A model generated the notes under the pieces. The model searched no databases. It was not told the origin of the DNA and saw only the letters and a program-made list of their open reading frames with translations. The position numbers and the translations under genes are program-made. 38,598 nucleotides of DNA from Promethearchaeia archaeon (GTDB lineage Archaea; Asgardarchaeota; Lokiarchaeia; Sigyniarchaeales; SOKP01): contig JAHQWL010000050.1 of NCBI GenBank assembly GCA_029856155.1, forward strand, positions 1 to 38,598. The letters are read 5' to 3'. Below are positions 15,422 to 36,504 of the stretch, in pieces (the stretch's first letter is position 1; each line of letters begins with the position of its first letter).

Positions 15422-15875
15422 ATTAAATCGGGATTTAATTTTAACTAGATTTAATAAATTAGATCAATTAATGGAAAATCTACTCGAACTTAAAGAGATC
15501 GGAAAAGAAGACTTCCTTTCTAACTATAAAAATTATTTCACGGCACAGAGAGCCTTAGAAATTTCTATAAATATATGTATTGACATTGGAAATCATATTG
15601 TGACACTCAATAATAAAGAAAAACCTGAAACATTTACTGATATAATAGAAATCTTAGCTAAGCATGAAATTATAAGTAATGAATTAAAAACTCACTTTAT
15701 TAAAATGGTAAGATTCCGTAATTTATTAGGGCATTTTTATTTAGAAATTGATAATAATATTATCTACAATATCTTACAGAACAATTTGAAAAATTTTGAT
15801 TCTTTTAAAGAAGCAATATTGAGAAAATTCAAAAATAATTTATTAGGAAATTCGAACAAAGAAAATTCTACTTAA
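15405..15875 (+). CDS. hepT: HEPN (DUF86) RNase toxin
   Basis: FRNLLGHFY (Rx4HxY); overlaps the MNT gene. Confidence 0.9.
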   Translation: MCLRIKLNRDLILTRFNKLDQLMENLLELKEIGKEDFLSNYKNYFTAQRALEISINICIDIGNHIVTLNNKEKPETFTDIIEILAKHEIISNELKTHFIKMVRFRNLLGHFYLEIDNNIIYNILQNNLKNFDSFKEAILRKFKNNLLGNSNKENST

Positions 15876-18153: not shown

Positions 18154-19065
18154 GTGAAAAAATTGGCTTTATTAAATTCAGATCAGAAAAAGGATACTGA
18201 AAACAATATAATTAAAGAAGAAATTAGTTTAAATTTACGTTTATGGTTACCGTTGTTCTACTTTATCTATTACTGCTCTTTTTTAATTCCAGGCATAATT
18301 TTTATGTTGTTTATAATCTTTTTTTATCTACCATATTTCTTAGAAGTATCAAGCTTTATTTCTCTTTTTACTAATTTACCTTCTCTCATTGCTTCATTAT
18401 CAATACCGTTTGTAATTATTATATGCTATTTGATTCATCTCTTTATTGTAGCTCTTATAACTCGTTCATTTTGGAAATACTCAGAAAAAAAATCTCCTTC
18501 TAAATCCGGGATCATTCCGAGGAATATACCTAGTAAGACGTTGGATTATTATCATTTTCGCAGTTTTATTATCAAATATCCCAAAAATGCATTTTCTCGT
18601 GGTCCATTTCCCTGGTTATTAAAGTGGATGTACAATTTTGTTGGGACTAATAAAATAGGAAAAGGATCGGTCATTGAGGAACAACTTGCAGGGGATAGGT
18701 TTGTAGATGTTGGGGAAAATTCTTACATCGGGACAAATCCGGGGATTAGTTCACATTCTGTAGATGGCGTTTTCGGAAATATTTCATTTGCTAAAATTAA
18801 AATAGGAAATAATGTAACTGCTGCAGGTTTTAATTGTTTTGCACCTGGAGTGGATACTGGAAATAATTCTTGGTGGTTACCTATGACAGGAGCAACTAAA
18901 TATAATATTTTGAAAGGAGATAATTTCTATTATGGTACACCCCTTAGAAAGATTTTTAAAAAAAGAGTTATGGAATACTTAAAAATTTCAGAAGAAGATT
19001 TGAAAAGAGCGGAAAAACTTAATGAAAAATTGAATATATCAAAAAAGGAAAAAAGAAAGACGTGA
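18154..19065 (+). CDS. 2TM + left-handed beta-helix (hexapeptide) protein, module A; Pls/NRPS terminal-domain-like
   Basis: Two TM helices, then GPFPWLLKWMYNFVGTNKIGKG, VDVGENSYIG, ISSH, IKIGNNVT and YYGTP. Confidence 0.75.
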   Translation: MKKLALLNSDQKKDTENNIIKEEISLNLRLWLPLFYFIYYCSFLIPGIIFMLFIIFFYLPYFLEVSSFISLFTNLPSLIASLSIPFVIIICYLIHLFIVALITRSFWKYSEKKSPSKSGIIPRNIPSKTLDYYHFRSFIIKYPKNAFSRGPFPWLLKWMYNFVGTNKIGKGSVIEEQLAGDRFVDVGENSYIGTNPGISSHSVDGVFGNISFAKIKIGNNVTAAGFNCFAPGVDTGNNSWWLPMTGATKYNILKGDNFYYGTPLRKIFKKRVMEYLKISEEDLKRAEKLNEKLNISKKEKRKT

Positions 19066-19076
19066 GAAATAACTAA

Positions 19077-19967
19077 ATGAACTCTAATACTAAAGAAGAA
19101 GAAACCAATAATAGTAAAGTAGATTATACAATCGATTTTGTAACTACTAGTGCAATAAGTAAAATTGGCTATAAATTTCTTGCTCTATATATCCCTATTC
19201 TATGGATGTCGGGATATATGACTGTAGCGGTATTTTTCGATGTATCAAGTTATATTCCGTGGTATATAAATATGTTTTTAATCCCTGTATGGTTATTTAT
19301 TTTATATTTTATTTTCGTTTTTGGAATCGCAATTTTTACAAAAGCTTTCATCCTAATAATAAATATGCTTCATAAGCCTAAAGAGGGAGTCTTCAGAGCT
19401 GAAGAAGGCGATCGAGATTATGAATATTGGCGATTAAGAGTAGAATTAAAAAAGTTGGTTTTTTGGTTTATGAATAATGGTCCTTTACCATGGATAGTAA
19501 TGTGGGGTTTCAGATGGATGGGGATTAAAGTAGACTTTTCAAGTCATATGCATGATGCGTGGGCAGATGAAAGATTCATTGAATTTGGTCGAAATGTTAC
19601 TGTAGGACAAGGAGCAGTAGTAATGAGCTCAATGGTTGTAGGAAAATATCTGATAATTAAAAAAGTAGTCATAGGAGATTACACTGTCGTAGGGGGGTTA
19701 AATCTTATATCTCCAGGCACAGTAATGGGGAGAGAATCTGTCACAGGTGCATTTTCAGCAACAATTCCAAACCAACAAATAGAAACAGGTTGGATATACT
19801 TAGGCCCACATTTTGCTAGGAAATTAAAACCAAATAAATATGCAGAACAAAGACGCGATATTATATATGAAGTCCGTGTAGATGATGAAATAAAATATGA
19901 AGTTAAGCAAGATGTCAATATAGATGAAGATAAGAAAAAATTTCTGAATAATAATATAGAGGATTAA
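19077..19967 (+). CDS. 2TM + LbH protein, module B
   Basis: Two TM helices, KPKEGVF..DYEYWRLR, FIEFGRNVTVGQGAVV, VVIGDYTVVG and WIYLGP. Confidence 0.75.
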   Translation: MNSNTKEEETNNSKVDYTIDFVTTSAISKIGYKFLALYIPILWMSGYMTVAVFFDVSSYIPWYINMFLIPVWLFILYFIFVFGIAIFTKAFILIINMLHKPKEGVFRAEEGDRDYEYWRLRVELKKLVFWFMNNGPLPWIVMWGFRWMGIKVDFSSHMHDAWADERFIEFGRNVTVGQGAVVMSSMVVGKYLIIKKVVIGDYTVVGGLNLISPGTVMGRESVTGAFSATIPNQQIETGWIYLGPHFARKLKPNKYAEQRRDIIYEVRVDDEIKYEVKQDVNIDEDKKKFLNNNIED

Positions 19968-19972
19968 AGATT

Positions 19973-20821
19973 ATGTCAGTGCCTTCGAGTTTAAAAGTAG
20001 GACCAAATACAACTCTTATCTTAGCAAAAAAGAGATATTTAATCTTTTATATCTTTTTAATCTGGATTAGTCTTTTTTCAATACAGTTTGAATTTTGGTT
20101 GTTCTGGAAACTTTATGAACCGAAATTTATTCATTTCGTATTTTTCTTACCTTTATTAGTTTTTGTTATGTATCTAACATCAATTTTAGTATCCTTAATC
20201 TTTGCTAAAATAATTCTAGTAATTATTAATCTTATTCATAGACCACGAGAAGGGGTGTTTTTAAGACATCACTCGGACAAAGACTATAGATATTGGAGTC
20301 TTAGAAGTACTATAAAAAAATGGCCATTATGGCTATCCCATAAATTTCCATTCCCTTTTATGAATAATATATGTTCTAAAATGTTTGGTATAAAGACCAA
20401 CTATTCCAACTCTTTATTTGAAGGATGGGTTGATACAGAATTTATTGAATTTGGTAAAAATGTTGTAGTTGGGCAGGGAGCAATAGTCCAGTCATCAGTT
20501 ATTGTTGGAAATTTATTTATCATTAGAAAAACCATCATTGAAGAAAATGTTTTGATTGGCTCTCAAAGCGTTGTTATGCCTGGAACGCATATGAAAAAAA
20601 ATTCTATTTTAGGAGGTCACTCAATGACTAAAATAGGTCAAGAATTAGAAGAGAATTGGATTTATTTAGGGGGCCCAGCTAAAAAGTTTAAAAAAAATGT
20701 ATTTTATGAAGATGGATTGGCAGAGATTATTAAAAATCAAGGAATTGGCGACATTAAAACAGAAGCGAAATTCGAAGGATTATATACTGTGCGTAAGGAT
20801 AAAGAGATTATTGATGATTGA
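19973..20821 (+). CDS. 2TM + LbH protein, module C
   Basis: Two TM helices, RPREGVF..DYRYWSLR, FIEFGKNVVVGQGAIV and WIYLGGPAK. Confidence 0.75.
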   Translation: MSVPSSLKVGPNTTLILAKKRYLIFYIFLIWISLFSIQFEFWLFWKLYEPKFIHFVFFLPLLVFVMYLTSILVSLIFAKIILVIINLIHRPREGVFLRHHSDKDYRYWSLRSTIKKWPLWLSHKFPFPFMNNICSKMFGIKTNYSNSLFEGWVDTEFIEFGKNVVVGQGAIVQSSVIVGNLFIIRKTIIEENVLIGSQSVVMPGTHMKKNSILGGHSMTKIGQELEENWIYLGGPAKKFKKNVFYEDGLAEIIKNQGIGDIKTEAKFEGLYTVRKDKEIIDD

Positions 20822-20874
20822 AAGACTTTATTTTCTTATTGAATTGTGATATTAAAATTTCTATATGATTAAAA

Positions 20875-21675
20875 ATGAAAATTGGATATATCCAAACATC
20901 TCCTCTATTTGGAGATAAAAAATATAATTTTGAAGAAATTGAAAAACTTATAACTGGCGTAAAAGCAGACTTATTAGTATTGCCGGAATTGTTTGCAACT
21001 GGTTATAATTTTGTTTCTAATAAAGAAGCAATATCATTAGCAGAAAGCCAAGATGGTGAAACTGCTCAATTTCTTATAAATGTTGCTCGATCGACTGAAT
21101 CAATAGTTATTGGTGGATTTATCGAAAAAGAAGGAGAAAAAGTATACAATGCAGCAATGATGGTATCAAATAATGGAGTTATCGGGTCATACCGAAAAAT
21201 TCATTTATATTATAAAGAAAATCTGTGGTTTTCTCCAGGAGATAAACCCCTAAAAATATATGATATAAATGGAGTTAAAGTTGGGATTATGATTTGTTTT
21301 GATTGGATTTTCCCGGAAACGGCACGGATTCTTGGCCTTTTAGGCGCAGATATTATTGCTCATCCATCAAATTTAGTTCTCCCTTTTTGCCAAAAAGCGA
21401 TGATTACTAGATGTTTGGAAAATCGGGTGTTTGCAATAACTTCAAATAGAATAGGTGAAGAAAAACGAGGCGAGGATCATTTTAAATTTACTGGCAAAAG
21501 TCAAATTACCTCTTATAATGGTGATATTTTGTCTTCTGCTCCTGAGGATAAAAATTATGTTGATATAATTGATGTTGATATTCAACAAGCTAGAGATAAG
21601 AAACTCAATGAATTCAATGATCTATTTGAAAACCGACGTGTAGAATTTTATAAGACTCTTGTTAAATCAAAATAG
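20875..21675 (+). CDS. Nitrilase-superfamily carbon-nitrogen hydrolase/amidase
   Basis: LPEL / YRKIHL / ICFDWIFPE catalytic triad. Confidence 0.92.
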   Translation: MKIGYIQTSPLFGDKKYNFEEIEKLITGVKADLLVLPELFATGYNFVSNKEAISLAESQDGETAQFLINVARSTESIVIGGFIEKEGEKVYNAAMMVSNNGVIGSYRKIHLYYKENLWFSPGDKPLKIYDINGVKVGIMICFDWIFPETARILGLLGADIIAHPSNLVLPFCQKAMITRCLENRVFAITSNRIGEEKRGEDHFKFTGKSQITSYNGDILSSAPEDKNYVDIIDVDIQQARDKKLNEFNDLFENRRVEFYKTLVKSK

Positions 21676-21692
21676 CGAGCTTTTTTAATTAT

Positions 21693-22610
21693 ATGAAAAT
21701 TGGATATCCTTGCATAAATCTAACGTTAAACTGTAGAAGTAGTAGAACTTTTCGCTTAAGAAACTATTCAGAAGAAAGGCTTATAGAGACTATTGAAAAT
21801 AATTTAAACTGTTTAGCAAAAATATTAGAATTCAACTACAAAAATAATATTTTCTTTTTTAGAATTACTTCGGATTTAATACCTTTTGCTTCTCATCCAA
21901 TCATGAAATTCGATTGGCAAGAATATTTTAAAACCAAGTTTAAGGAAATTGGAGTTTTTATAAAAAAGAACTCAATGCGAATTACGATGCATCCTGGTCA
22001 ATATACTGTTCTTAACTCTAAAAGTGATAGGGTGGTTAAAAATAGTATAAAAGAATTGAAATATCATGTTGATGTTTTAGATTTATTGGGTTTAAATTCA
22101 GAATCGAAAATAATCACCCATGTGGGAGGAGTTTATGGTGATAAGAAAAATAGCATTAAACGATTTATAGAACAACATAATAAACTCAATGAAAATATAA
22201 AAGATCACTATATTATTGAAAACGATGATAAAAATTATCAGCTAAAGGATTGCTTATTAATTAATGAATCTACAGAAATACCAATTGTTTTAGATTCATA
22301 TCATCATTATTGTTATAATCAAGGAGAACTATTAGAAAAAGCTATAGAACTTGTTAATAATACGTGGAAAAAAAGTGATGGATTACCAATAGTACATTAC
22401 AGTTCTGAACACCCATTAAAGGGTAAATATAGACATGCTGATGAGATTGATATAAATCATTTTAAGAATTTCTTAAAAAAAACTATTAATATCAATTTTG
22501 ATCTAATGTTGGAAATTAAAAATAAAGAAAAAAGTGCCTTAAGTGCCATAAAAATTCTAATTAATGATATTCGATTTATGCAAATTCTAGCAGAATTTTC
22601 AAATAATTAG
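21693..22610 (+). CDS. uvsE: UV DNA damage repair endonuclease UvsE/UVDE
   Basis: MKIGYPCIN, FRITSDLIPFASHP, MHPGQYTVLNS, ENDD, HAD and MLEIKNKE motifs. Confidence 0.93.
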   Translation: MKIGYPCINLTLNCRSSRTFRLRNYSEERLIETIENNLNCLAKILEFNYKNNIFFFRITSDLIPFASHPIMKFDWQEYFKTKFKEIGVFIKKNSMRITMHPGQYTVLNSKSDRVVKNSIKELKYHVDVLDLLGLNSESKIITHVGGVYGDKKNSIKRFIEQHNKLNENIKDHYIIENDDKNYQLKDCLLINESTEIPIVLDSYHHYCYNQGELLEKAIELVNNTWKKSDGLPIVHYSSEHPLKGKYRHADEIDINHFKNFLKKTININFDLMLEIKNKEKSALSAIKILINDIRFMQILAEFSNN

Positions 22611-22626
22611 CAATATATTTTTTAAA

Positions 22627-23118
22627 GTGGAAAAGCTGTTATTATTGATGAGTGTTATTAAATTACCAAAAATGGAAGAAAAGGAAATAAAAGAAGCAAT
22701 TAATTCACATAACTTATGTAGAATAGCGTTTATTGATGATGAATATCCTTATATTTCACCGTTCCAATATGTTCTTATTGATGATATAATGTATTTTCAC
22801 TTTACTGATTACGGTAAAAAGAAAGAAATTCTCTCAAATAACGCTAATGTTTGTGTCTCAATAGAAAAATTTGAATCAGATCTTAGTAGCTACTATTTTA
22901 TTTCAATGCAGGGTAAATTAGAATTAGTTGAAGATAATTATTTAAAAAAAGAAGTTATTAATCAAATGGCAAAATCTGCGAGTAGTAAATATTCACATAA
23001 TTTTCTATCAGTGCATGGTTTTAAAAAAAGTCAAGGTTGGGATGCTTTTACAGCAAAGAATCAAGTTATTTATAAATTCGAGCAAATAAGAACTCCAATT
23101 GGTCTAAAATCTATATAG
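22627..23118 (+). CDS. Pyridoxamine 5'-phosphate oxidase-like (NimA-type) flavin-binding protein; start probably ATG 22648
   Basis: LCRIAF..PYISPFQY..YFHF..GKKKEILSNNANVCV. Confidence 0.85.
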   Translation: MEKLLLLMSVIKLPKMEEKEIKEAINSHNLCRIAFIDDEYPYISPFQYVLIDDIMYFHFTDYGKKKEILSNNANVCVSIEKFESDLSSYYFISMQGKLELVEDNYLKKEVINQMAKSASSKYSHNFLSVHGFKKSQGWDAFTAKNQVIYKFEQIRTPIGLKSI

Positions 23119-23186
23119 AGATACTTCAGATTATCTATTCTCATATATTTTTAAGGTATAAATTTAGTTTATTAAAAATTAAAATT

Positions 23187-23255
23187 TGATTTGGAAAAGT
23201 GTGGCTAACTTTGAGGAATAAAATCTCATTTTTTTATTTGATTCCTTCCAAATCA
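23187..23255 (-). promoter_or_regulatory. 3' UTR stem-loop directly after the selenoprotein candidate stop (possible SECIS-like element or terminator)
   Basis: Perfect 10-bp inverted repeat TGATTTGGAA/TTCCAAATCA (23246-23255 and 23187-23196) plus an alternative inner stem GGAATCAAAT/ATTTTATTCC. Confidence 0.4.
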
Positions 23256-23732
23256 TTATTTTATATTAATTTTTTCGAGAACTTGTAAAATTTCATTGTT
23301 TTCTGGGATATCATGCATATTTTTTCCATAATATGCGTATTGAATTATCCCTTTCTTGTCAATTATTAATAATCCAGGCATTCGCCCAAGTTTTATCCAA
23401 CGTTTTTCTTGTTTTAACATTGTAGCAACTTTTTTTGATTCATCATAAAAAACCGCATACTTTCTTGCATATTTTTGTTCCATTTTTTGAGCATTTTTTT
23501 CATTATCTACTAAGATTGGATATAAATAACCATCCAATTCTTCAAATTTTTCGATATCTCTCCTTAATCTAGCAGCATGCCACCGACAGAAAGGTCAATT
23601 GATATCTCTAAATAAAACAATTATTACATTTTTTTTGTTTTCAAGATCTCTGATATTGACTGCTTCACCTCTAGAGTTTGGTAAACTAAACTCTTTGATT
23701 TTAGTACCAACTAAATTGAATTTATCTTTCAA
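23256..23732 (-). CDS. Peroxiredoxin-like (AhpC/TSA) protein with in-frame TGA, probably selenocysteine (UxxC); 158 aa
   Basis: TTG at 23732 gives MKDKFNLVGTKIKEFSLPNSRGEAVNIRDLENKKNVIIVLFRDIN-TGA-PFCRWHAARL, in frame with ORF 23256..23537 (MPGLLIIDKKGIIQYAY). TGA is at 23597-23595. Confidence 0.85.
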
Positions 23733-23849
23733 TTTAACTTCACTTCGATTTTTATTTATATTTTAAATAAAGAATAAATAAATATTTCTTAATTATATAC
23801 TTCTTTAAAATTATAAATTTAAATTGAAAGTCTATTCTGTGATGAGAAA

Positions 23850-24251
23850 ATGGCTCTTGATATAAATTGGATAGCTGTTGTAGTTGTTGCATTGATATAT
23901 TTTGCAATCCATTTTTTTTGGTATTTTCCTTTTGCATTTGGTAATCTATGGCTTAAATTAGTAGGAAAAGAAAGTGAACCGAAGTCTAAAATTATTAGAG
24001 ATACTATAATTATGATTCCAACTAGTTTTATAACAGTTCTTTTCATCGAGATAATGATGGATTTAACTGGTATGAATGATATCGTTCCCGCTTTATTACT
24101 TAGTTGCATGTTATGGCTCGGTTTTGTGGCAACAATTGCTATTAACCAAAATAATTTTAATGATAGAGGAATTAAGCTATTTTTATTAGAATATGGTTTT
24201 TATCTTATAGGTTTTATAATTAGTGGAGCGATATTAGCAGTTTGGATATAA
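23850..24251 (+). CDS. DUF1761-like small membrane protein
   Basis: INWIAVVV..FFWY..FGNLWLKLVG; four TM helices. Confidence 0.75.
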   Translation: MALDINWIAVVVVALIYFAIHFFWYFPFAFGNLWLKLVGKESEPKSKIIRDTIIMIPTSFITVLFIEIMMDLTGMNDIVPALLLSCMLWLGFVATIAINQNNFNDRGIKLFLLEYGFYLIGFIISGAILAVWI

Positions 24252-24377
24252 TCTACTAATTTATCTATATTTTATTAATTAAACTCCTTTTTTTTTTCAA
24301 ATTTTAAAGAATAGTATGAAATAAATTTATAATTTTGAGAGAGATGAGTTAAAATCTAATTTCGTATATGTTTATTT

Positions 24378-25217
24378 ATGAACTCTATTGAAAAATCGGA
24401 AGATGGTTGGCTAATACCAAAATCTCCAATTACATTTGATTATCTAAAAAGATTCAATCGAAATATGGGTATTTTACATTTAGTGCAAGGTTTACTAATG
24501 GTGCTTTTTGGTTTTTTACCTCAACTAGCTTTTTCCAGAGATCTTTACACTTTTTACCTTAAGTATGAACTTATTAGCCCAGATTTTATTATCTCGCCAA
24601 ATCCTACGATACTTTTTGTCTTTAGTGCTTTAGGGGCATTTGTTGGATCCTTTTTATTGATGTCTGCTATTGCTCATCTATTAATTGCTTACCCACTTAA
24701 TAAAAGTTATGTCAAGAATTTAAAAAGAGGAATAAATAAGATACGCTGGTTTGAGTACGCCTTTTCAAGTTCGGTGATGATTTTCTTAATCGCTATTTTC
24801 TTTGGCGTGTGGGATTTCTGGTCATTGTTTATGATTTTTGTGTTAAATGCACTTATGAATATGTTTGGGTTAATGATGGAATTATACAATGTTAACACAA
24901 GAGAAAAAGGTGAAAAAGTTAAATGGGGGCCATATTATTTAGGTGTTATTGCCGGAGCCGTTCCTTGGATTGTAATTACTGCTTATTTTATAAGTACTGA
25001 ATCAATTGGAGGAGAAGTACCTCTATTTGTCTATTTGATTTACGGAATAGAACTCTTTTTCTTTAATACATTCGCTATCAACATGATATTGCAATATAAA
25101 GGAGTAGGAAAGTGGAAAGATTATCTATATGGTGAAAGAGTATACCAACTTTTAAGTCTTGTATCTAAAACATTTCTAGCATGGCTTGTATTTGCAGGAG
25201 TATTTAGTCCAACATAA
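24378..25217 (+). CDS. heR: Heliorhodopsin
   Basis: LKRFN..LHLVQG, AHLL, RWFEYAFSSSVM, LNALMNMFGLMME and YGERVYQLLSLVSK (retinal-binding Lys). Confidence 0.93.
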   Translation: MNSIEKSEDGWLIPKSPITFDYLKRFNRNMGILHLVQGLLMVLFGFLPQLAFSRDLYTFYLKYELISPDFIISPNPTILFVFSALGAFVGSFLLMSAIAHLLIAYPLNKSYVKNLKRGINKIRWFEYAFSSSVMIFLIAIFFGVWDFWSLFMIFVLNALMNMFGLMMELYNVNTREKGEKVKWGPYYLGVIAGAVPWIVITAYFISTESIGGEVPLFVYLIYGIELFFFNTFAINMILQYKGVGKWKDYLYGERVYQLLSLVSKTFLAWLVFAGVFSPT

Positions 25218-25268
25218 TTATCCAAAAATGAAAAAAGTTTTTTTCTTTTTTTTCTTTTTTTTGTAAAT

Positions 25269-26909
25269 TTATGCTTCTATTATATATAACGGCCATTTTT
25301 TTAAAATTCCTTTAGGATTTTTACCACTTCTAACTTTTTCTAAAACTTCTGAACGTGTCACCACAAAATCTATTGGATTTTCATTAACTAATTTGATTTT
25401 AATTTCATTATTTAAGATAGCTCCTTTAAACTCATCATTTAGAATGCAATCAAGTAAAATTTTGCTATAATTCTTCAAATTAGAACAATTTTTCTTACCA
25501 TTTGAATGAAGATACAACGTCCACGGTTTATCTGAAACTTTTTTTTTTCTAATCAATAAAAGAGAATCAATATTTAAGCCACAATTCTCTTTTAGACAAT
25601 TTAATAGAAGTCGTGGATTATGAACTTCGAAATTAGCAAAACTAAAATAATCACCAGCAAATACTTTATAATCCGATTGTATTACAATTTCTTTCGATAA
25701 GTTTATTGGATATTTTAATTGAAAACTTGAACGTAAAATTCTTCCATCTATTTGTGGAAGTCCTTCCTGATGTTTAATAGAAATAACATCACCCAAATCA
25801 ATATTAACTAAAACTCCTGAGTTATTGAGTCGTGAAACATAAAGCTTGCCAAATTTATTTTTAGTTCTTGAAATAGCTTCTTTATTTCCTTTATATTCTA
25901 CTACGGGAATCGTTAATGGAAGAATATACATTTTATTTAAGCGTGATATTTCAAAATCCCCCTTGTTTATACTTGCAGCAAATGGACCAACTTCAGAAGC
26001 TACATAAAGATTAATAAATTTTTCCTTACCCTCTTCCCATTTCATAAATTTACGAATTAATTCCCAATCTGATTTTGATAATGAACTTATACTAAAAACC
26101 AAAGTTGCTTTAAATATTTTTTTAGATAATTCTTTTTGAATCTCTTTTGAAGCACTAACTAATCCATTTTTTTCAATTTTTAATAGGAGGTCTTCAAGTT
26201 TGGGGTTTTGAGTTTTATTTATTAAATCAAGCGATCTTTTTATCCCATCTTGGAGTCTAGTAATATCTGCCCATCCTAAAATTGTTATTGCTGGTGCGGA
26301 AATAACTGAAATATTATCCATTGTTAAAATTTTAGATATTATATCTAAATTTCTTGAATTTTTATATTCATATAGCAAATATGATTTTGGTTTGATAACG
26401 GATAGCATGATTCTTTGAGAAAATTCCGAGGAATAAAGTGAAATAAATTTTTTATCTCCATGTTTTTGAATCCCATCAAATTTAAGCCTTGAAGGAACAA
26501 AAATTATAGCAGAGGAATTTAAATCTAACCCACTCGATTCAAAGATTGCCTGCATTCCGGGTGCCCATTGTCTTTTAACAATGTCTTTTGCCATATGAAA
26601 CCATTTTAGCATTGATAATTTACTGTTTGTAGTCCCTGAAGTATGACAAAAAATTAAGGGGTCAGAAACTTTATCACTATTTAAAAAATCATCTAAATCT
26701 ATTGAGAAACTTCTAGAATCGGTTGTTTCAGATTTTATCCTATCGAAAAGATCTTCAATAGAAGATAACCCCGAAAGCTTTAATGATAGCTCTTCATATT
26801 CCTCTTGAGAATCTATTTCAAACCAATTTTTCCAATTTATCCTTTCTATGTCTGAAAAAGCTTTATTGAAGTTATTTTGAACTTTTTCATCAAAATCATG
26901 AGTTTCCAA
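25269..26909 (-). CDS. GH3/LuxE/PaaK-like ANL-superfamily adenylate-forming enzyme
   Basis: HTSGTT (A3), LYVASEVG (A5), IDLGDVI (A7) and IDGR (hinge). Confidence 0.7.
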   Translation of the reverse strand: METHDFDEKVQNNFNKAFSDIERINWKNWFEIDSQEEYEELSLKLSGLSSIEDLFDRIKSETTDSRSFSIDLDDFLNSDKVSDPLIFCHTSGTTNSKLSMLKWFHMAKDIVKRQWAPGMQAIFESSGLDLNSSAIIFVPSRLKFDGIQKHGDKKFISLYSSEFSQRIMLSVIKPKSYLLYEYKNSRNLDIISKILTMDNISVISAPAITILGWADITRLQDGIKRSLDLINKTQNPKLEDLLLKIEKNGLVSASKEIQKELSKKIFKATLVFSISSLSKSDWELIRKFMKWEEGKEKFINLYVASEVGPFAASINKGDFEISRLNKMYILPLTIPVVEYKGNKEAISRTKNKFGKLYVSRLNNSGVLVNIDLGDVISIKHQEGLPQIDGRILRSSFQLKYPINLSKEIVIQSDYKVFAGDYFSFANFEVHNPRLLLNCLKENCGLNIDSLLLIRKKKVSDKPWTLYLHSNGKKNCSNLKNYSKILLDCILNDEFKGAILNNEIKIKLVNENPIDFVVTRSEVLEKVRSGKNPKGILKKWPLYIIEA

Positions 26910-27037
26910 AATAATCTCCTACGCTCTAAGTTTTATTTTATAATATTAATGGTTAAAAATAACGATATTTTCAAGATCTAATTAGAATAAATAAGGAAAA
27001 AATGAATTATATTGTTTTTCGAAAATATTTATTTGTT

Positions 27038-27577
27038 TTAAATATGAGCAAAAATACCATATAACCCAGACTCAGAATCTTGGAATATAGGCAAGTGTGG
27101 TGGCAAATAGGTAAATAGTATTAAAGAAAGTCCGAATCCTAAAATAACTATCCATGACATAATACTTATCCATCTTGGTAATTCATTTAATGTCAATATT
27201 TTATAGCTAACTACTTGACCAATAATTACACCAATATAAAAACTTAAAATGTCTATTATAAGAAGTTCTGCCCCAAGAATAGCTGTATATGAGTAAAATA
27301 CAATTAAAATGGTAGCTATACTTATTATAGCAGCAACGGTTTTTGCAATGATAATATTATTTGCTTTTTCTTTTATAAATTTATATTCGATTAAAAAAAA
27401 GATTATAAGTGGCCAATAGGGGAGTTTTAGATGTTCCCAAACACTTTCATTAACTGCAGTAATCGCCCCAACAGGAGGCCAAGAAAAAAGCCATTCAAAT
27501 ACAAAGTGGAATAAAGAACCAACGATAATAATAAAAACCATACCCAAAATTTCCCATTGTAATATTTTATTCTTCAT
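27038..27577 (-). CDS. DUF6512-like membrane protein
   Basis: GSLFHFVFEW, VNESVWEHLKL and FTYLPPHLPIFQD motifs. Confidence 0.75.
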   Translation of the reverse strand: MKNKILQWEILGMVFIIIVGSLFHFVFEWLFSWPPVGAITAVNESVWEHLKLPYWPLIIFFLIEYKFIKEKANNIIIAKTVAAIISIATILIVFYSYTAILGAELLIIDILSFYIGVIIGQVVSYKILTLNELPRWISIMSWIVILGFGLSLILFTYLPPHLPIFQDSESGLYGIFAHI

Positions 27578-27818
27578 GTTTTCACCTTTAAATCTTTAAA
27601 AATCTAATCCAATTAATTTTAGTTAAATTGAAAATATAAAAAAAGTGCATATTTCTGTTTTATATAATAGATTAAATTTAAAAACAGTTCTGTTTAGATT
27701 CTATAAATTTATTCTAAATAGTAGCTTATCTTTATTAGAACTTATATTAATTTCTTTATTATTTCTAGATTGAAATTTGTTAATTTTAAATGCTAGTGAA
27801 ATACTAGTTTGATTTGAT

Positions 27819-28826
27819 ATGAAAGCCGCTGTATATGATGGTAATAAAATAACAATAAAAGATGTACCCGATCCAGAAATTAAAGAATCTCAAGCCTTAG
27901 TTCGCGTTGAAGCGGTAGGAATTTGTGGAACAGATTTGGCAATCGCAAATGGCTATTTGCTAACGCCTACTCCAATTATTCTAGGACATGAATTTGCTGG
28001 AAAAGTTGTAAAAATAGGGAAAGAAGTTGATCTTTCTTGGTTAAATAAAAGGGTTACATCGGAAATTAATAGTAATATTGATTTTGATTGTTATTATTGT
28101 AAAAAAGGGCTCTATACTCAATGTGTATCTCGTAAAGCTATTGGAATTGATATAGATGGTGCTTTATCAGAATATATTGCATTAGAATCTTATTTGTTGC
28201 ATGAAATACCTGATTCAATTACTTATGATGAGGCTACTTTTATCGAACCTCTCGCTGCAGCTTATCAAACATTTGAAATGATGCCAATTGATAAAAGTGA
28301 TAAAACTATAGCTTTATTTGGTCTTGGAAAGTTAGGATTATTAATCACTCAAATAGCAATATCTAAAGGATTAACATTAATAGCTATAGATGGTTCAGAT
28401 AAAAAACTTAATCTTACCAAAGAATTTGGGGCTAAATATTTAATCAATAGGGTGACATGTAAAGATGTTCCCGATGAGATCATAAATCTGACTAATAATT
28501 TAGGCGCTGATATTGTAATTGATACAACTGGTAATCCTAATGCACTGAGGGAGATTATTGCTTCCTGCAGAACTCGAGGAAAAATTCATGTAAAGAGCAC
28601 TCATGGACTTGAAACACCAATTAATCTCACTGATATTGTCGTTCGCGAGCTAACGCTTTATAGTAGTAGATGTGGACCATTTGAAAAAGCAATTGACGGT
28701 TTAACATCTGGTAATATACAAGTAAAGCAATTAATTTCAAAAAAGTTCAAATTAGATGAAATAAATAAAGCTTTTGACTCTTATAAAAACAACCGAGATC
28801 ATATTAAAACTGTTGTTCACATATAG
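27819..28826 (+). CDS. Zinc-dependent medium-chain dehydrogenase (threonine/sorbitol dehydrogenase-like)
   Basis: GICGTD, GHEF, EPLAAA, GLGKLG and SRCGPF motifs. Confidence 0.9.
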   Translation: MKAAVYDGNKITIKDVPDPEIKESQALVRVEAVGICGTDLAIANGYLLTPTPIILGHEFAGKVVKIGKEVDLSWLNKRVTSEINSNIDFDCYYCKKGLYTQCVSRKAIGIDIDGALSEYIALESYLLHEIPDSITYDEATFIEPLAAAYQTFEMMPIDKSDKTIALFGLGKLGLLITQIAISKGLTLIAIDGSDKKLNLTKEFGAKYLINRVTCKDVPDEIINLTNNLGADIVIDTTGNPNALREIIASCRTRGKIHVKSTHGLETPINLTDIVVRELTLYSSRCGPFEKAIDGLTSGNIQVKQLISKKFKLDEINKAFDSYKNNRDHIKTVVHI

Positions 28827-28968
28827 TATCAATTTATTATTTATCCTATTCATACTCAATAATATACAAGAAAGTTAATAAAAAAACATTGAATTTTTTA
28901 AAAAATAAATTTTAATTAATAAATATACCTTTAAAATCATAAATTGGTTCTTTTAAGGAAAAATACTA

Positions 28969-30798
28969 ATGGACACTACTGAATTACCATCGATTGAAAG
29001 TGTTTCAGAGAATAATACCGTTAAAGAAGAAATTAAAAATCAATATTTTTGGTATCTTTTAGTGCTTTTCACTATATTTTTAGCTTCATTAGTTATTCCC
29101 GCGATTTTGTTTCTAATGTATGTATTTTTCTTTTTTTTACCTAATTTTTTAGAAACTACTAGTTTTTTAGCCCTTTTTACTGAGTTTAAACCATTGATAG
29201 CATTGATTTCTATGCCTTTAATTCTCATTGGGTGTTATCTTATTCGACTATTCTTTATAGGTATAATTACACGTGGTTTTTGGTATCTAACTGAAAAAAG
29301 ATCCCCTAGTAAAAGTGGTATTATACCAAGAAATTTTCCTAGTAAAACATTAAATTATTATCAACTTAGAGGGTTCATGATTAAATATGGAAAGAATGCT
29401 TTTATGAAAGGACCTTTTCCTTGGCTTAGCAACTGGTATTTTAATTTTATAGGAGCAAGCAAAATTGGAAAAGGTACCACCTTTGAGGAATCTGTTAGTA
29501 GTGATAAATTTATTGAAGTAGGGGAAAATTGCTATATAGGAGTTAATTCTGCTTTAGCTAGCCATGTTATTGAAGGAGTATTTGGAAACATCTCTTATTT
29601 TAAAGTAAAAACTGGAGATAATTTTACTGCCGCAGCTAGTAATGTTTTAGGACCTGGTTCTGAAGCCTATGATAATTCTTATTTACTTCCTTTAGCAGCA
29701 GCCACGAAGCATAGTTTAATTAAAGGAAATAATTATTACTGGGGCATGCCATTAAGAAAAATTTTCAGAAAAAAGATTATGAATTTTTTAAGAATATCAC
29801 CAAAGGATTTAGAAAAAGGTGAAAATGCTGGAGGTTACAAAGATAAAAAATTGTTTAAAAAATTGAGGGCTCAGAAACATTCGAAACAATCTGAAACTGA
29901 ACCCAAAATAGTACAAGATAACGGAGCTTTAAGTAAAGAAAATATTAATCTTAATAATTTGGATGAAGAAGATTTAAGAATTGATTTTACTACTAGTAGT
30001 GCAATTTCAAGAGTAAATATAAAATTTTTAGCTGTTTATATCCCAATTTTTTGGCTATCTGGGATGCTAGATACTGTAATCTTTTACACTTTCACTCATT
30101 ATGTTCAAAACTGGGTTTTAATGGCATTTTTTCTACCAGCAATATTAATTTTTATTTGGTTTATATTCATTTTAGGGTGTTTTTTCTTTAGCAAACTTTT
30201 CTTAATATTAATTAAATTAATACATAGACCAAAAGAAGGAATATTTAAAGCTGAAAAAGGAGATACTGATTTTGAATTTTGGTGTTTGCGAACTGAATTA
30301 AAAAAGATAGCTTTTTGGCTTATTCGAAATTGGCCTCTCCCTTGGATGGATATTTTGGCTTTTAAATGGTTCGGAATCAAAATGAGTCTATCAAGCACGT
30401 TATGGGATTCATGGTGCGATGGTGAATTTATTACATTTGGACGTAGAGTAATTGTAGGGCAAGGTGCTACTGTTATGTCCTCTATGGTTGTCGGAAAATA
30501 TTTAATAATTAAAAATACCATTCTGGATGATTATGTAGTTATTGGAGGTCAGAGCATCGTAGCCCCAGGAACGATCGTTGGTAAGGATTCAGTAATTGGT
30601 GCTCTTAGTACGACTACCTTTAATCAGATCCTTGAGCCTGGATGGATTTATTTTGGAATTCCTGTTATTCAGCTAAAAAAAAATAAATATTCCGAAGAAC
30701 GTCGAGATATACTTATGAAAAAGGATGTTGATGAAGAAAAGAAGTTTGAAATTGAACATGAAGTCAATATTGATGAAGATAAAAAGGAATTCGCATAA
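28969..30798 (+). CDS. Fused A+B 2x(2TM+LbH) protein, Pls terminal-domain-like
   Basis: N-half is paralogous to 18154 (SPSKSGIIPRN, ASH) and C-half to 19077 (IDFTTSSAIS, EVNIDEDKK). Confidence 0.8.
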   Translation: MDTTELPSIESVSENNTVKEEIKNQYFWYLLVLFTIFLASLVIPAILFLMYVFFFFLPNFLETTSFLALFTEFKPLIALISMPLILIGCYLIRLFFIGIITRGFWYLTEKRSPSKSGIIPRNFPSKTLNYYQLRGFMIKYGKNAFMKGPFPWLSNWYFNFIGASKIGKGTTFEESVSSDKFIEVGENCYIGVNSALASHVIEGVFGNISYFKVKTGDNFTAAASNVLGPGSEAYDNSYLLPLAAATKHSLIKGNNYYWGMPLRKIFRKKIMNFLRISPKDLEKGENAGGYKDKKLFKKLRAQKHSKQSETEPKIVQDNGALSKENINLNNLDEEDLRIDFTTSSAISRVNIKFLAVYIPIFWLSGMLDTVIFYTFTHYVQNWVLMAFFLPAILIFIWFIFILGCFFFSKLFLILIKLIHRPKEGIFKAEKGDTDFEFWCLRTELKKIAFWLIRNWPLPWMDILAFKWFGIKMSLSSTLWDSWCDGEFITFGRRVIVGQGATVMSSMVVGKYLIIKNTILDDYVVIGGQSIVAPGTIVGKDSVIGALSTTTFNQILEPGWIYFGIPVIQLKKNKYSEERRDILMKKDVDEEKKFEIEHEVNIDEDKKEFA

Positions 30799-30813
30799 AA
30801 AGACATTAATATT

Positions 30814-31239
30814 TTAAATTATATTTATTTTCAATTGTTCTTTTAGAAATCTCTTTAAAACATCACACTTTTCTTTCAAAACCTGTTTATCTTGATAGAA
30901 CAGATTAACTCTAGGGCAATCCTTATCAAATATACACTTTTTCCTATGGAAATCGTATATTAAAGGGTAAAATCTGCAACCTTGAGGACGAAACTCATAA
31001 ATAGTACAAATCTTTAAAAGCTTGTCAAAAAAAACACAATATCCTTCAATATTTTTTAATTGAAAAAGATCATCCTTGTTTTTAAAAATAAACTCTTGCT
31101 TTCTTTTATGATCTTGGCATTTTCTCATTATCAAATCAATATCATGTTCGGAAACAATCATCTCTGTCTCTATACAACACTTTCCACAATTTTCGCAATC
31201 ATTTGACATGGTTGGTTTTTCTTTTTGCCTACGACTCAT
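30814..31239 (-). CDS. YkgJ-family CxxCxxCC cysteine-cluster protein
   Basis: CENCGKCC, CVFF and CTIYEFRPQGCRFYP motifs. Confidence 0.9.
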   Translation of the reverse strand: MSRRQKEKPTMSNDCENCGKCCIETEMIVSEHDIDLIMRKCQDHKRKQEFIFKNKDDLFQLKNIEGYCVFFDKLLKICTIYEFRPQGCRFYPLIYDFHRKKCIFDKDCPRVNLFYQDKQVLKEKCDVLKRFLKEQLKINII

Positions 31240-31341
31240 AACTTTAAAAGAAAAAAAAAATAACTATTAAAGTATAATAAGTATCAATTGTTTTTTAATG
31301 AAGAAAAAATTACCGAAATTTATACCTCGTAATAAGAATCA

Positions 31342-33240
31342 ATGGTAAAAATGAGTGAAGAAGAAAAAGAATCTGAGCTATCTGATTCCGATGATTCTAA
31401 TAACGAAGTTATAAAAGAAGAAGTAAGTCTTCAATTTCATTTATATATTATTATTTTCGCTATTATCTATTATATTTCATGGGTTATACCAGGATTTGTA
31501 TTTTGGTTATATTTTTTCTTCCCTTTTCGAATATTCTTTTTAGAAAATCTTGGTTTTTTATCTCTTTTTACTAATTTAAGTTCTCTAATAACGTTATTAA
31601 TAATGCCTTTAGTTATAATTGGCTGTTATATAATTCATTTAATGCTGATTGGATTAACAACACGATTTATTTGGGGAATTACTGAAAAAAATTCACCCTC
31701 AAAATCAGGTATCATTCCAAGAAATATTAGAAGTAGAGTAGCAAATTATTACCATATTAGAAGTTTTATGATAAAATACGGAAAAAATACCTTTACAAAA
31801 GGTATATTTCCATGGTTATCTAATTGGTTTTTTAATTTTGTTGGGTCAAACAAAATTGGAAAAGGTACAACCTTAGAGGAATCTGTGGGTATGGATAAAT
31901 TTATAGATATTGGTGAAAATTGTTATATTGGTGTAAATACTACCTTAGCGAGCCATCTCGTCGTTGGGATTTTTGGTAATATCTCATATTTTGAAATTAA
32001 AGTTGGTAATAATGTAACTTCTTCTGCTTTGAGCAATGTTGGTCCCGGAAGTGAAATTTATGAAGATACATATCTATTACCTCTAGCTTCTACACCAAAA
32101 CATAGTATATTAAAAGGTAATAACTCATATTATTTTGGAATTCCAATGAGAAAAATCTTTAGAAAGAAACTTATGAAATATTTAAAAGTAACACCAAAAG
32201 ATTTGGAGATGAATGAGAATATTGAGGGGTACTCAGATAAAAAATTATTAAAAGAAATAAAAAAGAAGAAGAATTATCCTGAAAATGACGATGAAAATGT
32301 TGATAGAGAACAAACTCTGGGTGACCTACAAGAAGATAAATTAGTATTGGATAAATTAACCGCAAAAGATTTAGCGATTGATTTCACAACAAGCTCTGCA
32401 ATAAGTAGGGTAAATGTAAAGTTTTTAATTGTATATATACCAATCTTTTGGCTTTCGGGATTAATCGTAACCATAATTTGGTACTGGTATTCTAGAACTC
32501 AAGTTTCATCGAACTTTCAATGGGCATTTTTCTTTTTCTTCCCATTTGTTTTGTTCGGATTATTATATATCTTTATTGCGGGATGCCTTCTTTTTAGTAA
32601 GCTATTTTTAATTTTAATAAATTTAATTCATAAACCTAAAGAGGGTGTTTTTAAAGCAGAGATTGGAGATACTAATTACGAATTTTGGATGATGAGAACT
32701 GAACTAAAGAAAATTGCTTTATGGTTATTTCGAAATTCACCGTTTCCGTGGACCGATGCATTAGCTTTTAAGCAGTTAGGGATAAATATGGATTTTTCAA
32801 GCCATTTGGCGGATACGTGGTGTGATTCTGAATTTATTAAATTTGGTCGTAAAGTATTGGTCGGTCAGGGAGCTACAATTATGTCCAGTATGGTAATAGG
32901 TAAATATTTACTGATTAAAAAAGTATTTTTTGATGATTATGTAATGGTTGGAGGTCATACGACGATTGCTCCAGGGACGATAATAGAGAAAGAATCGGTT
33001 ATCGGTGCGATAAGTTCAACAACCTATGATCAAGTTCTAAAACCTGGTTGGATTTATTTTGGAATACCCGCTAGGGAGTTAAAAGAAAATAAATATGCTG
33101 AAGAAAGAAGAGATGTAATAATAAAACGCCAAGTAGCTGAAGACAAAAAATTTGAAATGACGTATGAAGTTAATATTGATGAGGATAAGAAAGAATTAAT
33201 TAAACCAAAGAAGGAGTTGAAAAAAAATGAGTGTTCCTAA
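31342..33240 (+). CDS. Fused A+B 2x(2TM+LbH) protein, second copy
   Basis: Close paralog of 28969..30798 over its full length. Confidence 0.8.
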   Translation: MVKMSEEEKESELSDSDDSNNEVIKEEVSLQFHLYIIIFAIIYYISWVIPGFVFWLYFFFPFRIFFLENLGFLSLFTNLSSLITLLIMPLVIIGCYIIHLMLIGLTTRFIWGITEKNSPSKSGIIPRNIRSRVANYYHIRSFMIKYGKNTFTKGIFPWLSNWFFNFVGSNKIGKGTTLEESVGMDKFIDIGENCYIGVNTTLASHLVVGIFGNISYFEIKVGNNVTSSALSNVGPGSEIYEDTYLLPLASTPKHSILKGNNSYYFGIPMRKIFRKKLMKYLKVTPKDLEMNENIEGYSDKKLLKEIKKKKNYPENDDENVDREQTLGDLQEDKLVLDKLTAKDLAIDFTTSSAISRVNVKFLIVYIPIFWLSGLIVTIIWYWYSRTQVSSNFQWAFFFFFPFVLFGLLYIFIAGCLLFSKLFLILINLIHKPKEGVFKAEIGDTNYEFWMMRTELKKIALWLFRNSPFPWTDALAFKQLGINMDFSSHLADTWCDSEFIKFGRKVLVGQGATIMSSMVIGKYLLIKKVFFDDYVMVGGHTTIAPGTIIEKESVIGAISSTTYDQVLKPGWIYFGIPARELKENKYAEERRDVIIKRQVAEDKKFEMTYEVNIDEDKKELIKPKKELKKNECS

Positions 33241-34177
33241 CACGATGAGGGTCGGTCCTTTCACAAGTACTGTCCTTGTAAAGAAACGTTATTTAACTTT
33301 TTACATCTTGTTGATTTGGGCAAGTATTATTCCAATTCTTTTGGAATTTTGGATTTATTGGCGATTTTTATGGAATCCAATAAGACCAGTCCACTTTTAC
33401 ACATTTCTTCCACTTTTGGCTTTTTTAATGTATATTACTCTAGTTTTTTCTTCAATACTTTTTGCTAAGATCTTATTAATTATAATTAATGCAATCCATA
33501 AGCCTCGAGAAGGCGTTTTTTTAAGAATTCCCGCAGATCGAGATTATAGATATTGGAGTCTACGGAATACTATAAAAAGATGGCCAATTTGGCTTGCTCA
33601 CAGATTTCCTTTCCCTGGATTTTTAGATAATGTCTGTTTCAAAATGTTTGGAGTGAAAACTAAAATTTCAAACTCTCTATTTGAAGGTTGGGTCGATACT
33701 GAATTTATAAATTTTGGTAAAGACGTAGTTGTTGGACAAGGAGCAATTGTTCAATCTGCCGTAATAATAGGTAATCTATTAATAATCCGAAAAACTGTTA
33801 TAGAAGATGAAGTTAGGATAGGGTCGCATGCTATAATCATGCCGGGTACACATATTGAGCACAATTGTATTTTAGCTGCTAATTCCGTAACTACGGTAGG
33901 ACAGGTTTTAGAGAGAGGATACATTTATGCGGGTATTCCCGCAAAAAAGTTCAAAAAGAACTATTTTTTTGAGGATGGATTGGAGGATAAGATAGGGCAC
34001 GTTGAGGATGTTGAGGCGTTAAGAGAAAAATATGAACAGATTTATACTAAAAGATATGATAAATTGAAACTTAAAGAGCGTCGTGAATTAAAAAGAGAAA
34101 AGAAAGAAGAGGAAAAGAAGAGATTTGACTATGCAGCTGATGAATGGGAAGAATTTGACGATGGTTTCAACATTTAA
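33227..34177 (+). CDS. 2TM + LbH module C, second copy
   Basis: MSVP..VGP and DYRYWSLR..WP.WL.H.FPFP; paralog of 19973; overlaps the upstream gene by 14 nt. Confidence 0.8.
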   Translation: MSVPNTMRVGPFTSTVLVKKRYLTFYILLIWASIIPILLEFWIYWRFLWNPIRPVHFYTFLPLLAFLMYITLVFSSILFAKILLIIINAIHKPREGVFLRIPADRDYRYWSLRNTIKRWPIWLAHRFPFPGFLDNVCFKMFGVKTKISNSLFEGWVDTEFINFGKDVVVGQGAIVQSAVIIGNLLIIRKTVIEDEVRIGSHAIIMPGTHIEHNCILAANSVTTVGQVLERGYIYAGIPAKKFKKNYFFEDGLEDKIGHVEDVEALREKYEQIYTKRYDKLKLKERRELKREKKEEEKKRFDYAADEWEEFDDGFNI

Positions 34178-35466: not shown

Positions 35467-36504
35467 ATGAAGTTTGTTGAAGTAGCGGGTACTAAATTTG
35501 AAGTTAAAAATGGATTTCTTGATTTAGTTCTTTTAGAAATAAAAGATATTAATGAAATACAAGGATTATCAAAACTAAAAGATTTAAAGAATTTAGAATT
35601 AAGCTCAAATCAAATAGCTGTAATTAGAGGGCTAGATAACTTAACTGAGTTAGAAATCTTAAATTTAGGGAACAATGATATAGTTGAAATAAAGGGATTA
35701 GAAAAATTAAAAAAACTCAAGATTCTTCATCTTATAAGTAACCAGTTAACAGAGATAAAAGGTTTAGAGAATTTAAGAAATTTAGAAGAATTATATTTAA
35801 GGGGAAATCAGATAACAGAGTTAAAAGGTTTAGAGAATTTAACCTCCTTAAAGAGGCTTGATCTTTCTTGGAATGACATAACAGAAATCAGGGGCTTTAA
35901 TACTTTAACAAATCTTGAAGTATTATGGATTGCGGGAAATAAGGTAGAAAAAATCAAAAATTTTGAAAAGTTAGAGAAACTTGAAGTGTTAAATCTTGCT
36001 GGAAATCAGATTAAGAGTATTGAAGGGTTGGAGAGTCTAAAGAAGCTCAAATCTCTTTACTTAAATAATAATTTAATTCAAGATATTCATAGCCTAAATA
36101 CTTTAGAAAATTTGGAGACATTATGGCTAAATAATAACCAAATTTCAACTATTGGAGGTTTAGATAATTGCGAAGCCCTAAGAATTCTAAATTTAAAACA
36201 AAACAATTTAAGCCAGATAAAAGGATTATATTCTTTGAATAGATTAGAAAATCTTTTTCTTTCAGAGAATAATATTGGAGAAATTAAAGGTCTTGAAACG
36301 CTAACTAAGTTAGAAACTCTCGATTTAGGTCAAAATCGCATAATTCAGATTAAAGGATTAGAATCTTTAATGAATTTAAAAGATTTATGGCTAGCGGATA
36401 ATTTAATCCCTCAAAAAATATTAGATGACTTAGGAGGATTAGATTCGGGTGGTTGTGCAAATGATCCCTTGAAATTTGTTCAATATAGTCTTGTTAATTT
36501 ATGA
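35467..36504 (+). CDS. SDS22-like leucine-rich repeat protein
   Basis: About 13 repeats of 22 aa, LxxLxxLxLxxNxIxxIxGLxx. Confidence 0.92.
   Translation: MKFVEVAGTKFEVKNGFLDLVLLEIKDINEIQGLSKLKDLKNLELSSNQIAVIRGLDNLTELEILNLGNNDIVEIKGLEKLKKLKILHLISNQLTEIKGLENLRNLEELYLRGNQITELKGLENLTSLKRLDLSWNDITEIRGFNTLTNLEVLWIAGNKVEKIKNFEKLEKLEVLNLAGNQIKSIEGLESLKKLKSLYLNNNLIQDIHSLNTLENLETLWLNNNQISTIGGLDNCEALRILNLKQNNLSQIKGLYSLNRLENLFLSENNIGEIKGLETLTKLETLDLGQNRIIQIKGLESLMNLKDLWLADNLIPQKILDDLGGLDSGGCANDPLKFVQYSLVNL

Follow-up and report, generated by a model that had tools for sequence, protein, structure and literature searches.

What kind of membrane assembly is encoded by a stretch of archaeal DNA in which one small protein architecture recurs eight times, and what could it catalyse? 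We addressed this question on contig JAHQWL010000050.1 (assembly GCA_029856155.1) of a Promethearchaeia archaeon, an AT-rich sequence (~29% GC) of 38,598 nucleotides which is referred to below, in its full length, as the window. The recurring unit, or module, has two transmembrane (TM) segments followed by a left-handed beta-helix (LbH), and it occurs in three types, named A, B and C. Conserved and uncharacterised, these modules are a real variant of the Pls-type membrane LbH module in a split, stand-alone and probably heteromeric form. The best explanation, in which we place moderate confidence, is that they would form ring-shaped membrane LbH acyltransferases, free-standing relatives of the Pls/PosA domain, with one active site and a donor supplied in trans. 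No description of this module family was found in the searchable literature.

Module types and homology to the Pls/PosA terminal domain

Six open reading frames (ORFs), all on the forward strand, carry the eight modules. Three single-module genes follow each other closely: A1 (18154-19065, 303 aa), B1 (19077-19967, 296 aa) after a gap of 11 nt, and C1 (19973-20821, 282 aa) after another 5 nt. Further downstream, A and B modules are fused in AB2 (28969-30798, 609 aa), which has no C gene of its own, and in AB3 (31342-33240, 632 aa), which overlaps by 14 nt with the gene of C3 (33227-34177, 316 aa). The total is three A, three B and two C modules. A preliminary description of this DNA had listed the same modules, types and gene sets at these coordinates, but distributed them over three loci, while AB2, AB3 and C3 make up a single neighbourhood (an AB gene, a reverse gene for a CxxCxxCC protein, and a second AB gene followed by C) with one C.

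In all eight modules, the hydropathy profile has two segments of strong hydrophobicity, and a hexapeptide/LbH region (Pfam Hexapep) comes after them. The Pfam model scores above its cut-off in C1, AB2, AB3 and C3 and below it in B1 (21.3 bits), and A1 has no match in the Pfam scan. In pairwise BLAST comparisons, identity within types is 51-59% for A (E 1e-100 to 1e-131), 50-65% for B and 61% for C. Modules B and C share 35-40% identity (E 1e-46 to 1e-64), and A shares ~18-28% with B or C, with most pairs significant (E mostly 1e-5 to 1e-19). Alignment of modules from this genome discloses the motifs PKEGVF...YxYWxLR, PFPW...GxKIG, FIxFG..V.VGQG and WIYxGxPA, which include all those noticed in the preliminary description. 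The tails that follow the LbH (in 33227-34177, and in 29974-30798 and 32377-33240) are highly charged and carry conserved short end motifs, VNIDEDKK in B and the terminus DDGFNI in C3.

Outside the window, the same genome contains six further modules, which brings the number to 14. A C'A' fusion truncated by the contig end is followed by B' on contig C101, two tandem modules are on contig C11, and a lone A-like module is on contig C8. Together, the C8 module and the C11 pair appear to make up a third set of this kind, given that protein P0138 fuses a C8-like module with a module similar to C11a. The family is widespread in related archaea: A-type modules turned up in each of the 41 relatives that were searched, many Asgard metagenome-assembled genomes encode C3 homologues with 69-93% identity, and homologues of the modules are labelled Promethearchaeota, Lokiarchaeota or with other Asgard names.

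To relate the modules to known proteins, we used TIGR02353, the NCBIfam model of the Pls/PosA family non-ribosomal peptide synthetase (NRPS) terminal domain, which has a curated cut-off of 423.1 bits. Epsilon-poly-L-lysine synthetase and delta-poly-L-ornithine synthetase belong to this family. B1, C1, AB2, AB3 and C3 match it with 23.2-47.1 bits, far under the cut-off (residues 357-575 of AB2, for example, align to profile positions 7-219), and A1 has no match to it in the NCBIfam scan. These direct matches are not diagnostic alone, since weak matches to the model appear in all 14 control genomes if the threshold is lax, and we relied on a reverse profile search instead. We built a profile from 13 modules of the studied genome and compared it with 1.84 billion representative proteins, of which 8814 were recovered at E<=1e-3. 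Within the top 150 is P0251 (1320 aa), in which three stretches align to profile positions 17-248 (E 1.5e-33). This protein passes both TIGR02353 (589.8 bits) and TIGR01733 (adenylation domain), and is therefore a bona fide synthetase of the Pls/PosA type. The match spans the TM hairpin, the linker and the LbH, i.e. it extends beyond the LbH alone, and motifs common to the modules and Pls are also present outside the LbH core: (P)xEG after TM2, W of YW.L, P...G.K.G and W.G.PA. Judged from these profile and motif comparisons, homology of the modules to the Pls/PosA C-terminal domain is real and specific, and goes beyond likeness to generic soluble LbH proteins.

The proposed relation to the Pls C-terminal domain is in this way upheld, although membership in the family is not. 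The window proteins score below the cut-off and are without adenylation (A) and carrier (T) domains: none is fused in the six ORFs, as the preliminary description had stated, and none adjoins them. No TIGR02353 match above the cut-off was found in 301 Asgard genomes. In sequence searches of solved structures, the modules matched generic LbH enzymes only, and no relative of the Pls/PosA C-terminal domain beyond such enzymes was found in the PDB.

Similarity can also be followed in predicted structures. The AlphaFold model of C3 (pLDDT 69) has TM segments at residues 20-48 and 61-90, a short strand, two helices and a beta-helix, which is the succession of elements published for the model of the C-terminal domain of PosA (TM, TM, strand, two helices, LbH; PMC10522769). 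The Pls/PosA C-terminal domain has no experimental structure, and in Pls and PosA it was modelled as a pseudo-trimer within a single chain (PMC10522769). The systems share the repeat unit of TM hairpin, short strand, two helices and LbH, homology over both TM and LbH parts, three units per (here predicted) assembly, and a His in one of the three units. They differ in that the TM1-6 and C1-C2-C3 parts of Pls/PosA belong to one chain, whereas the Asgard units are split over two or three genes (1+1+1, 2 and 2+1), their scores are far below the cut-off, A/T domains are missing, and no carrier or phosphopantetheinyl transferase (PPTase) was found in the genome.

Differences in ancestry were examined on a tree of 182 modules (FastTree, with FastTree support values), in which branches are long. 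All modules of the studied genome fall into one clade of 148 (support 0.82), with Pls-type modules outside it. Within this Asgard clade, A-type modules form a clade of 67 (support 0.91), and the B/C-type clade is weakly supported. The tree speaks against a one-to-one mapping of A, B and C onto C1, C2 and C3 of Pls, with the caution that long branches call for. Equivalence of A+B+C with the Pls unit, as proposed earlier, thus holds for architecture and ancestry, and not for the correspondence of individual modules. In genome G032, the A-like gene has only one partner, a C-like gene coding for 434 aa, which points to an origin of B and C by duplication of a single gene of this kind. As a separate observation, family f26 and other Asgard families have single-module proteins of ~240-300 aa, often at unlinked places, which best match different thirds of TIGR02353 (~3-240, 235-490 and 588-695; up to 93 bits). 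Examples are G290:C77:4374-5102, G290:C27:823-1554 and G290:C27:11590-11913. These proteins may be split units closer to Pls C1/C2/C3 than the window modules are.

Stand-alone relatives exist also in bacteria, as fused triples in single chains of ~650-690 aa that score 157-184 bits with TIGR02353 and have no A/T domains. Triples P0242 and P0250 (the latter MBK8576353.1) are from Elusimicrobiota, and others are P0190 and P0191. In P0205, a chain of 960 aa (L017 8001-10883), a short-chain dehydrogenase/reductase (SDR) is fused to the triple. A Pls-type terminal domain can be encoded separately too, as in P0269, located directly after an A-T gene and overlapping it. The architecture is therefore not uniquely archaeal. 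Bacterial triples resemble the Asgard modules in having three TM-hairpin and LbH units without A/T domains, presumably a donor in trans, and no characterised member in the searchable literature. They differ in being one polypeptide, in forming a separate clade (support 0.99) outside the 148-module clade, and in their context of GT1 glycosyltransferase, GMC oxidoreductase, SDR and dTDP-sugar genes, which is missing at the Asgard loci. These surroundings are glycolipid-like clusters. Around P0250 (L016 6931-13144), the order is SDR, triple, a 722-aa AMP-binding enzyme and GT1. Recurrence of the triples with SDR (fused in P0205, adjacent in P0250), GT1 and a large AMP-binding enzyme looks, from gene content, like an undescribed glycolipid or natural-product cassette.

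Predicted assembly of A, B and C and the candidate active site

Fusions of modules in Asgard genomes indicate how the three types may be arranged. In addition to AB (P0121), we found CA with B encoded separately behind it (P0124-P0130; L021) and CAB (P0122, 797 aa; P0123). Wherever both modules of a fusion are on the tree, one module of the A clade is always joined to a module or modules of the B/C clade. The combinations AB, CA and CAB all fit the cyclic order A>B>C>A, and are therefore as a closed three-part ring predicts.

The complex of AB3 and C3 was modelled with a separate alignment for each partner, in three runs. All three gave an ipSAE of 0.86, compared to 0.00 for the best control; among solved complexes 58 of 80 attained this mark, and among mismatched pairs 2 of 110. 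Both partners have a pLDDT of at least 77, and the runs agree in at least 69% of contacts. In the model, C3 contacts both the A part (66-303) and the B part (339-575) of AB3 through TM helices and LbH faces, with TM contacts between A 85-93 and C 27-38 and between B 366-381 and C 58-66. C3 is thus predicted to close the ring by touching both parts of AB3. The model supports binding, short of proof, and together with gene order and spacing, the fusions and the analogy to the Pls/PosA pseudo-trimer, it lends support to an A-B-C hetero-oligomer.

A candidate active site emerged from comparison with soluble acyltransferases. The A-type profile matches E. coli LacA (hhalign probability 96.9, E 1.7e-10), and a His of A, present also in A1, falls on LacA His115, the catalytic base of that enzyme. 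This residue (H205 of AB3) is invariant in 62 AB proteins. The equivalent positions are occupied by Ser-Ser in B (in B1, and as S515-S516 in AB3) and by residues other than His in C (in C1, and as Q176-S177 in C3). In the two Pls-type proteins compared, His occupies that column only in the third module (m3); in most bacterial triples it is only in module 2, and in P0250 in all three. The A-type proteins share with LacA/MAT-type soluble acyltransferases, which are galactoside and maltose O-acetyltransferases, and with the YvoF-type heptaprenylglyceryl-phosphate O-acetyltransferase NF058585, the LbH, the His in the catalytic loop and the C-terminal PG...G.PA, and NF058585 is among the top NCBIfam matches of A1, AB2 and AB3. 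Enzymes of the LacA/MAT type are, in contrast, soluble homotrimers with three identical sites, while the Asgard units have a conserved TM hairpin and a linker, and are of three kinds, of which one keeps the His.

In the complex model, the C loop equivalent to the His region (176-184) faces A, and the B loop 514-522 faces C; by symmetry of the ring, the His loop of A should therefore face B. Since only A keeps the His aligned to LacA His115, a single active site per ring is likely, and it would lie within the AB pair, which is fused more often than any other. Such a position would make sense of AB paralogues that share one C, two AB genes with one C3 here and three with one C3 in genome G003.

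The hetero-oligomer has to be weighed against the possibility that A, B and C are independent membrane-anchored acetyl- or acyltransferase homotrimers, each with its own substrate, which are clustered through tandem duplication. LbH enzymes are classically homotrimeric, the numbers of the three types are unequal, and single modules and pairs occur in other genomes. Homotrimers of B or C would, however, be left without the canonical base, fusions join only unlike types in a fixed cyclic order, AB3 and C3 genes overlap by 14 nt, and the heteromeric model, in which C contacts both A and B, clearly separates from its controls. With these arguments combined, we consider independent homotrimers unlikely.

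Probable donor, proposed mechanism and possible product

The genome is 97% complete, and neither a PP-binding carrier (PF00550) nor a PPTase (PF01648, ACPS) was found in it, although the same models were positive in 11 and 10 of 14 control genomes, respectively. A carrier-bound aminoacyl donor of the Pls style is therefore unlikely. Most likely, the donor is a coenzyme A (CoA) thioester or an acyl-adenylate provided in trans; the CoA thioester is the simplest guess, because it has the same pantetheine arm and is the usual donor of LbH enzymes. The earlier idea of a donor in trans remains plausible.

An unannotated gene that might supply the activated donor is located between the A1-C1 genes and AB2 (25269-26909, reverse strand). 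Its 546-aa product has no Pfam match, AMP-binding included, and no NCBIfam match, and a sequence search of solved structures gave nothing meaningful. Motifs of the adenylate-forming (ANL) type are invariant in 57 homologues (TSGTT-type, SE.GP, GD and a C-terminal Lys-rich motif). Using its AF2 model (pLDDT 90.6) as a query, Foldseek retrieved PaaK-type acyl-CoA ligases and GH3 acyl-acid amido synthetases (E 4e-11 to 1e-7, probability 1.00). The modelled structure assigns this protein to the two-domain adenylate-forming fold, in the PaaK/GH3 branch of the ANL superfamily. The ANL-like gene was detected in 18 of 24 genomes of the genus, where it is on the same contig as A or AB module genes, mostly 3-6 kb off. 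The enzyme possibly supplies the donor, and its link to the modules, based on synteny within one genus only, is suggestive only.

In the mechanism proposed on these grounds, one A, one B and one C would each bring in one TM hairpin and one LbH domain, so that six helices would make up the membrane base and three LbH domains a pseudo-trimeric head. Lys/Arg-rich segments on either side of the hairpins make a cytoplasmic location of this head probable. In the ring A>B>C>A, A alone would provide the canonical general-base His, oriented toward B, whereas the part of C, and largely of B too, would be that of a scaffold and binding partner. C3 would be shared between AB2 and AB3 as alternative catalytic cores. 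The CoA thioester or acyl-adenylate would come in trans, possibly from the PaaK/GH3-like neighbour, and the acceptor would probably be membrane-associated or passed through the helix bundle.

Several observations weigh against this explanation, in addition to the control matches of TIGR02353 mentioned above. C is paralogous to B and LbH homotrimers are common among solved structures, and the complex score may in part express this likeness. Module numbers are unequal, 3 A:3 B:2 C in the window and 5:5:3 in G003, and another family of the same order has only a pair, a pair and a single module, so a strict 1:1:1 composition is not general. The membrane heterotrimer of the preliminary description is favoured by tight genes, fusions and the complex model, and disfavoured by unequal counts and by families with pairs and singles. 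The catalytic role of His and its position toward B come from the alignment and the list of interface residues, and not from coordinates. In f2, a sister family with modules, the ANL-like gene was detected in none of 11 genomes, and in G033, from another family, it is unlinked. Homology of the modules, their types, the fusions and their conservation are shown by the sequences, the assembly is predicted, and the single active site, the donor and the topology are inferred.

The ring could also be a true Pls-like polymerase, which would make a poly-amino-acid or another polyamide iteratively and export it, with aminoacyl groups donated in trans (as adenylate, CoA or tRNA) in place of a fused A-T didomain. 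The specific homology to the Pls/PosA polymerisation domain, TM part included, agrees with this, as do the one-His-in-three pattern seen in true Pls-type proteins and the example of P0269, in which the Pls-type C-terminal domain is encoded apart from the A-T gene. GH3 enzymes form amide bonds, and a GH3/PaaK-like adenylating enzyme is nearby, while an amidase-like gene of the nitrilase superfamily directly follows C1. Against a polymerase are the lack of a detectable carrier or PPTase in the genome and of TIGR02353 matches above the cut-off in Asgard genomes, the position of the modules in a clade of their own, apart from Pls modules, and the absence of diamino-acid supply genes near the loci in a Pfam scan of neighbours. 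In addition, the closest bacterial stand-alone relatives are near glycosyltransferase, SDR and sugar-nucleotide genes, and not in amino-acid pathways. We therefore regard a polymerase as improbable. Of the preliminary description as a whole, ancestry and architecture are retained and a donor in trans is plausible, but nothing points to polyamide as the product.

A bolder variant of the acyltransferase ring, which we consider unlikely, is a carrier-independent membrane ligase or polymerase fed with acyl or aminoacyl groups by the PaaK/GH3-like enzyme, with an amide or ester product (polyamide or acylated archaeal lipid) built at the membrane or through it. If true, the Pls polymerisation module would have existed on its own, either earlier than its joining to NRPS parts or independently of it.

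The gamma-carbonic-anhydrase trimer of complex I is a heteromeric LbH assembly on a membrane complex, with most of its sites degenerate. The LbH part finds some of its best matches in solved structures with subunits of this trimer from plant and protist mitochondria (PDB 7AR9, 7TGH), but these subunits have no such TM hairpin and no LacA-type His, and their chemistry is different, so the likeness is an analogy of design only. A non-enzymatic or loosely enzymatic structural or transport module of this kind would fit these matches, the loss of His in two of three modules and the strong conservation of TM hairpins, which make up much of the predicted interface, but it is highly improbable given that all of 62 homologues keep the A-type His, which aligns to a known catalytic base, and that relatives of known function, Pls and PosA, are enzymes (PMC10522769).

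The natural split may be useful for understanding Pls/PosA, whose polymerisation domain is without a solved structure or a known mechanism (PMC10522769): it offers a simpler system, in which subunits can be separated and only one His is a candidate for catalysis. For Asgard archaea, the modules represent an expanded and highly conserved family of membrane enzymes, with 14 modules in this genome alone, and may matter for the chemistry of the envelope or membrane in those archaea that are most closely related to eukaryotes. With the 546-aa protein, the adenylate-forming enzymes gain a further branch, one without annotation.

Neighbouring genes in the window and in relatives

A gene for an archaeal nitrilase-like C-N hydrolase (20875-21675, forward strand; Pfam CN_hydrolase, E 3e-43) begins 53 nt past C1. 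Its product scores 295.9 bits with NF040852, under the 500-bit cut-off of that model. The same gene comes after the C1-type gene also in G024, G003 and G006, which belong to the same genus, and by position it is a conserved follower of the separate A, B and C genes in the genus. Between AB2 and AB3, the reverse strand encodes a CxxCxxCC (PF03692) putative metal-binding protein (30814-31239), and a reverse ORF of 131-157 aa occupies the same place in the three genomes. Both arrangements, i.e. A, B and C with the nitrilase-like gene, and AB, reverse gene, AB and C, recur there in full. Co-occurrence of the three types, in which the preliminary description had seen a check of its proposal, is thus observed in G024, G003 and G006. 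An ORF of 326 aa upstream of A1 was considered as a part of the system and rejected, as G024 and G003 do not have it conserved in this position.

A heliorhodopsin gene (PF18761, E 6e-85; 24378-25217, forward strand) is preceded by a DUF1761 gene (23850-24251, forward strand), and this pair adjoins the ANL-like gene in G003 as well. On the reverse strand, a long-chain-fatty-acid--CoA ligase (9671-11338) is divided into ORFs of 299 and 246 aa, which correspond to model positions 1-291 and 291-531. The two halves are in the same frame, separated by a single in-frame TAA (10439-10441), which may stem from a nonsense mutation or a sequencing error, or be read through. A mini-intron of the tRNA type was dismissed, since two ORFs in one frame with a lone TAA between them are unlike one. 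We also rejected this ligase as an activator of the donor, as it is 7 kb off, on the other strand, behind unrelated genes and interrupted by the TAA.

Other genes in the window belong to different functional categories. Overlapping genes for a nucleotidyltransferase (Polbeta/MNT) and a HepT-like (HEPN) ribonuclease (14981-15875, forward strand) look, by their domains, like a toxin-antitoxin module, and a PIN-domain gene is located at 11521-11955 on the reverse strand. Downstream of C3, the ORF at 35467-36504 (forward strand) encodes a protein of 345 aa composed nearly entirely of leucine-rich repeats (LRR_4, E 3e-57). LRR proteins of this kind are common in Asgard genomes.

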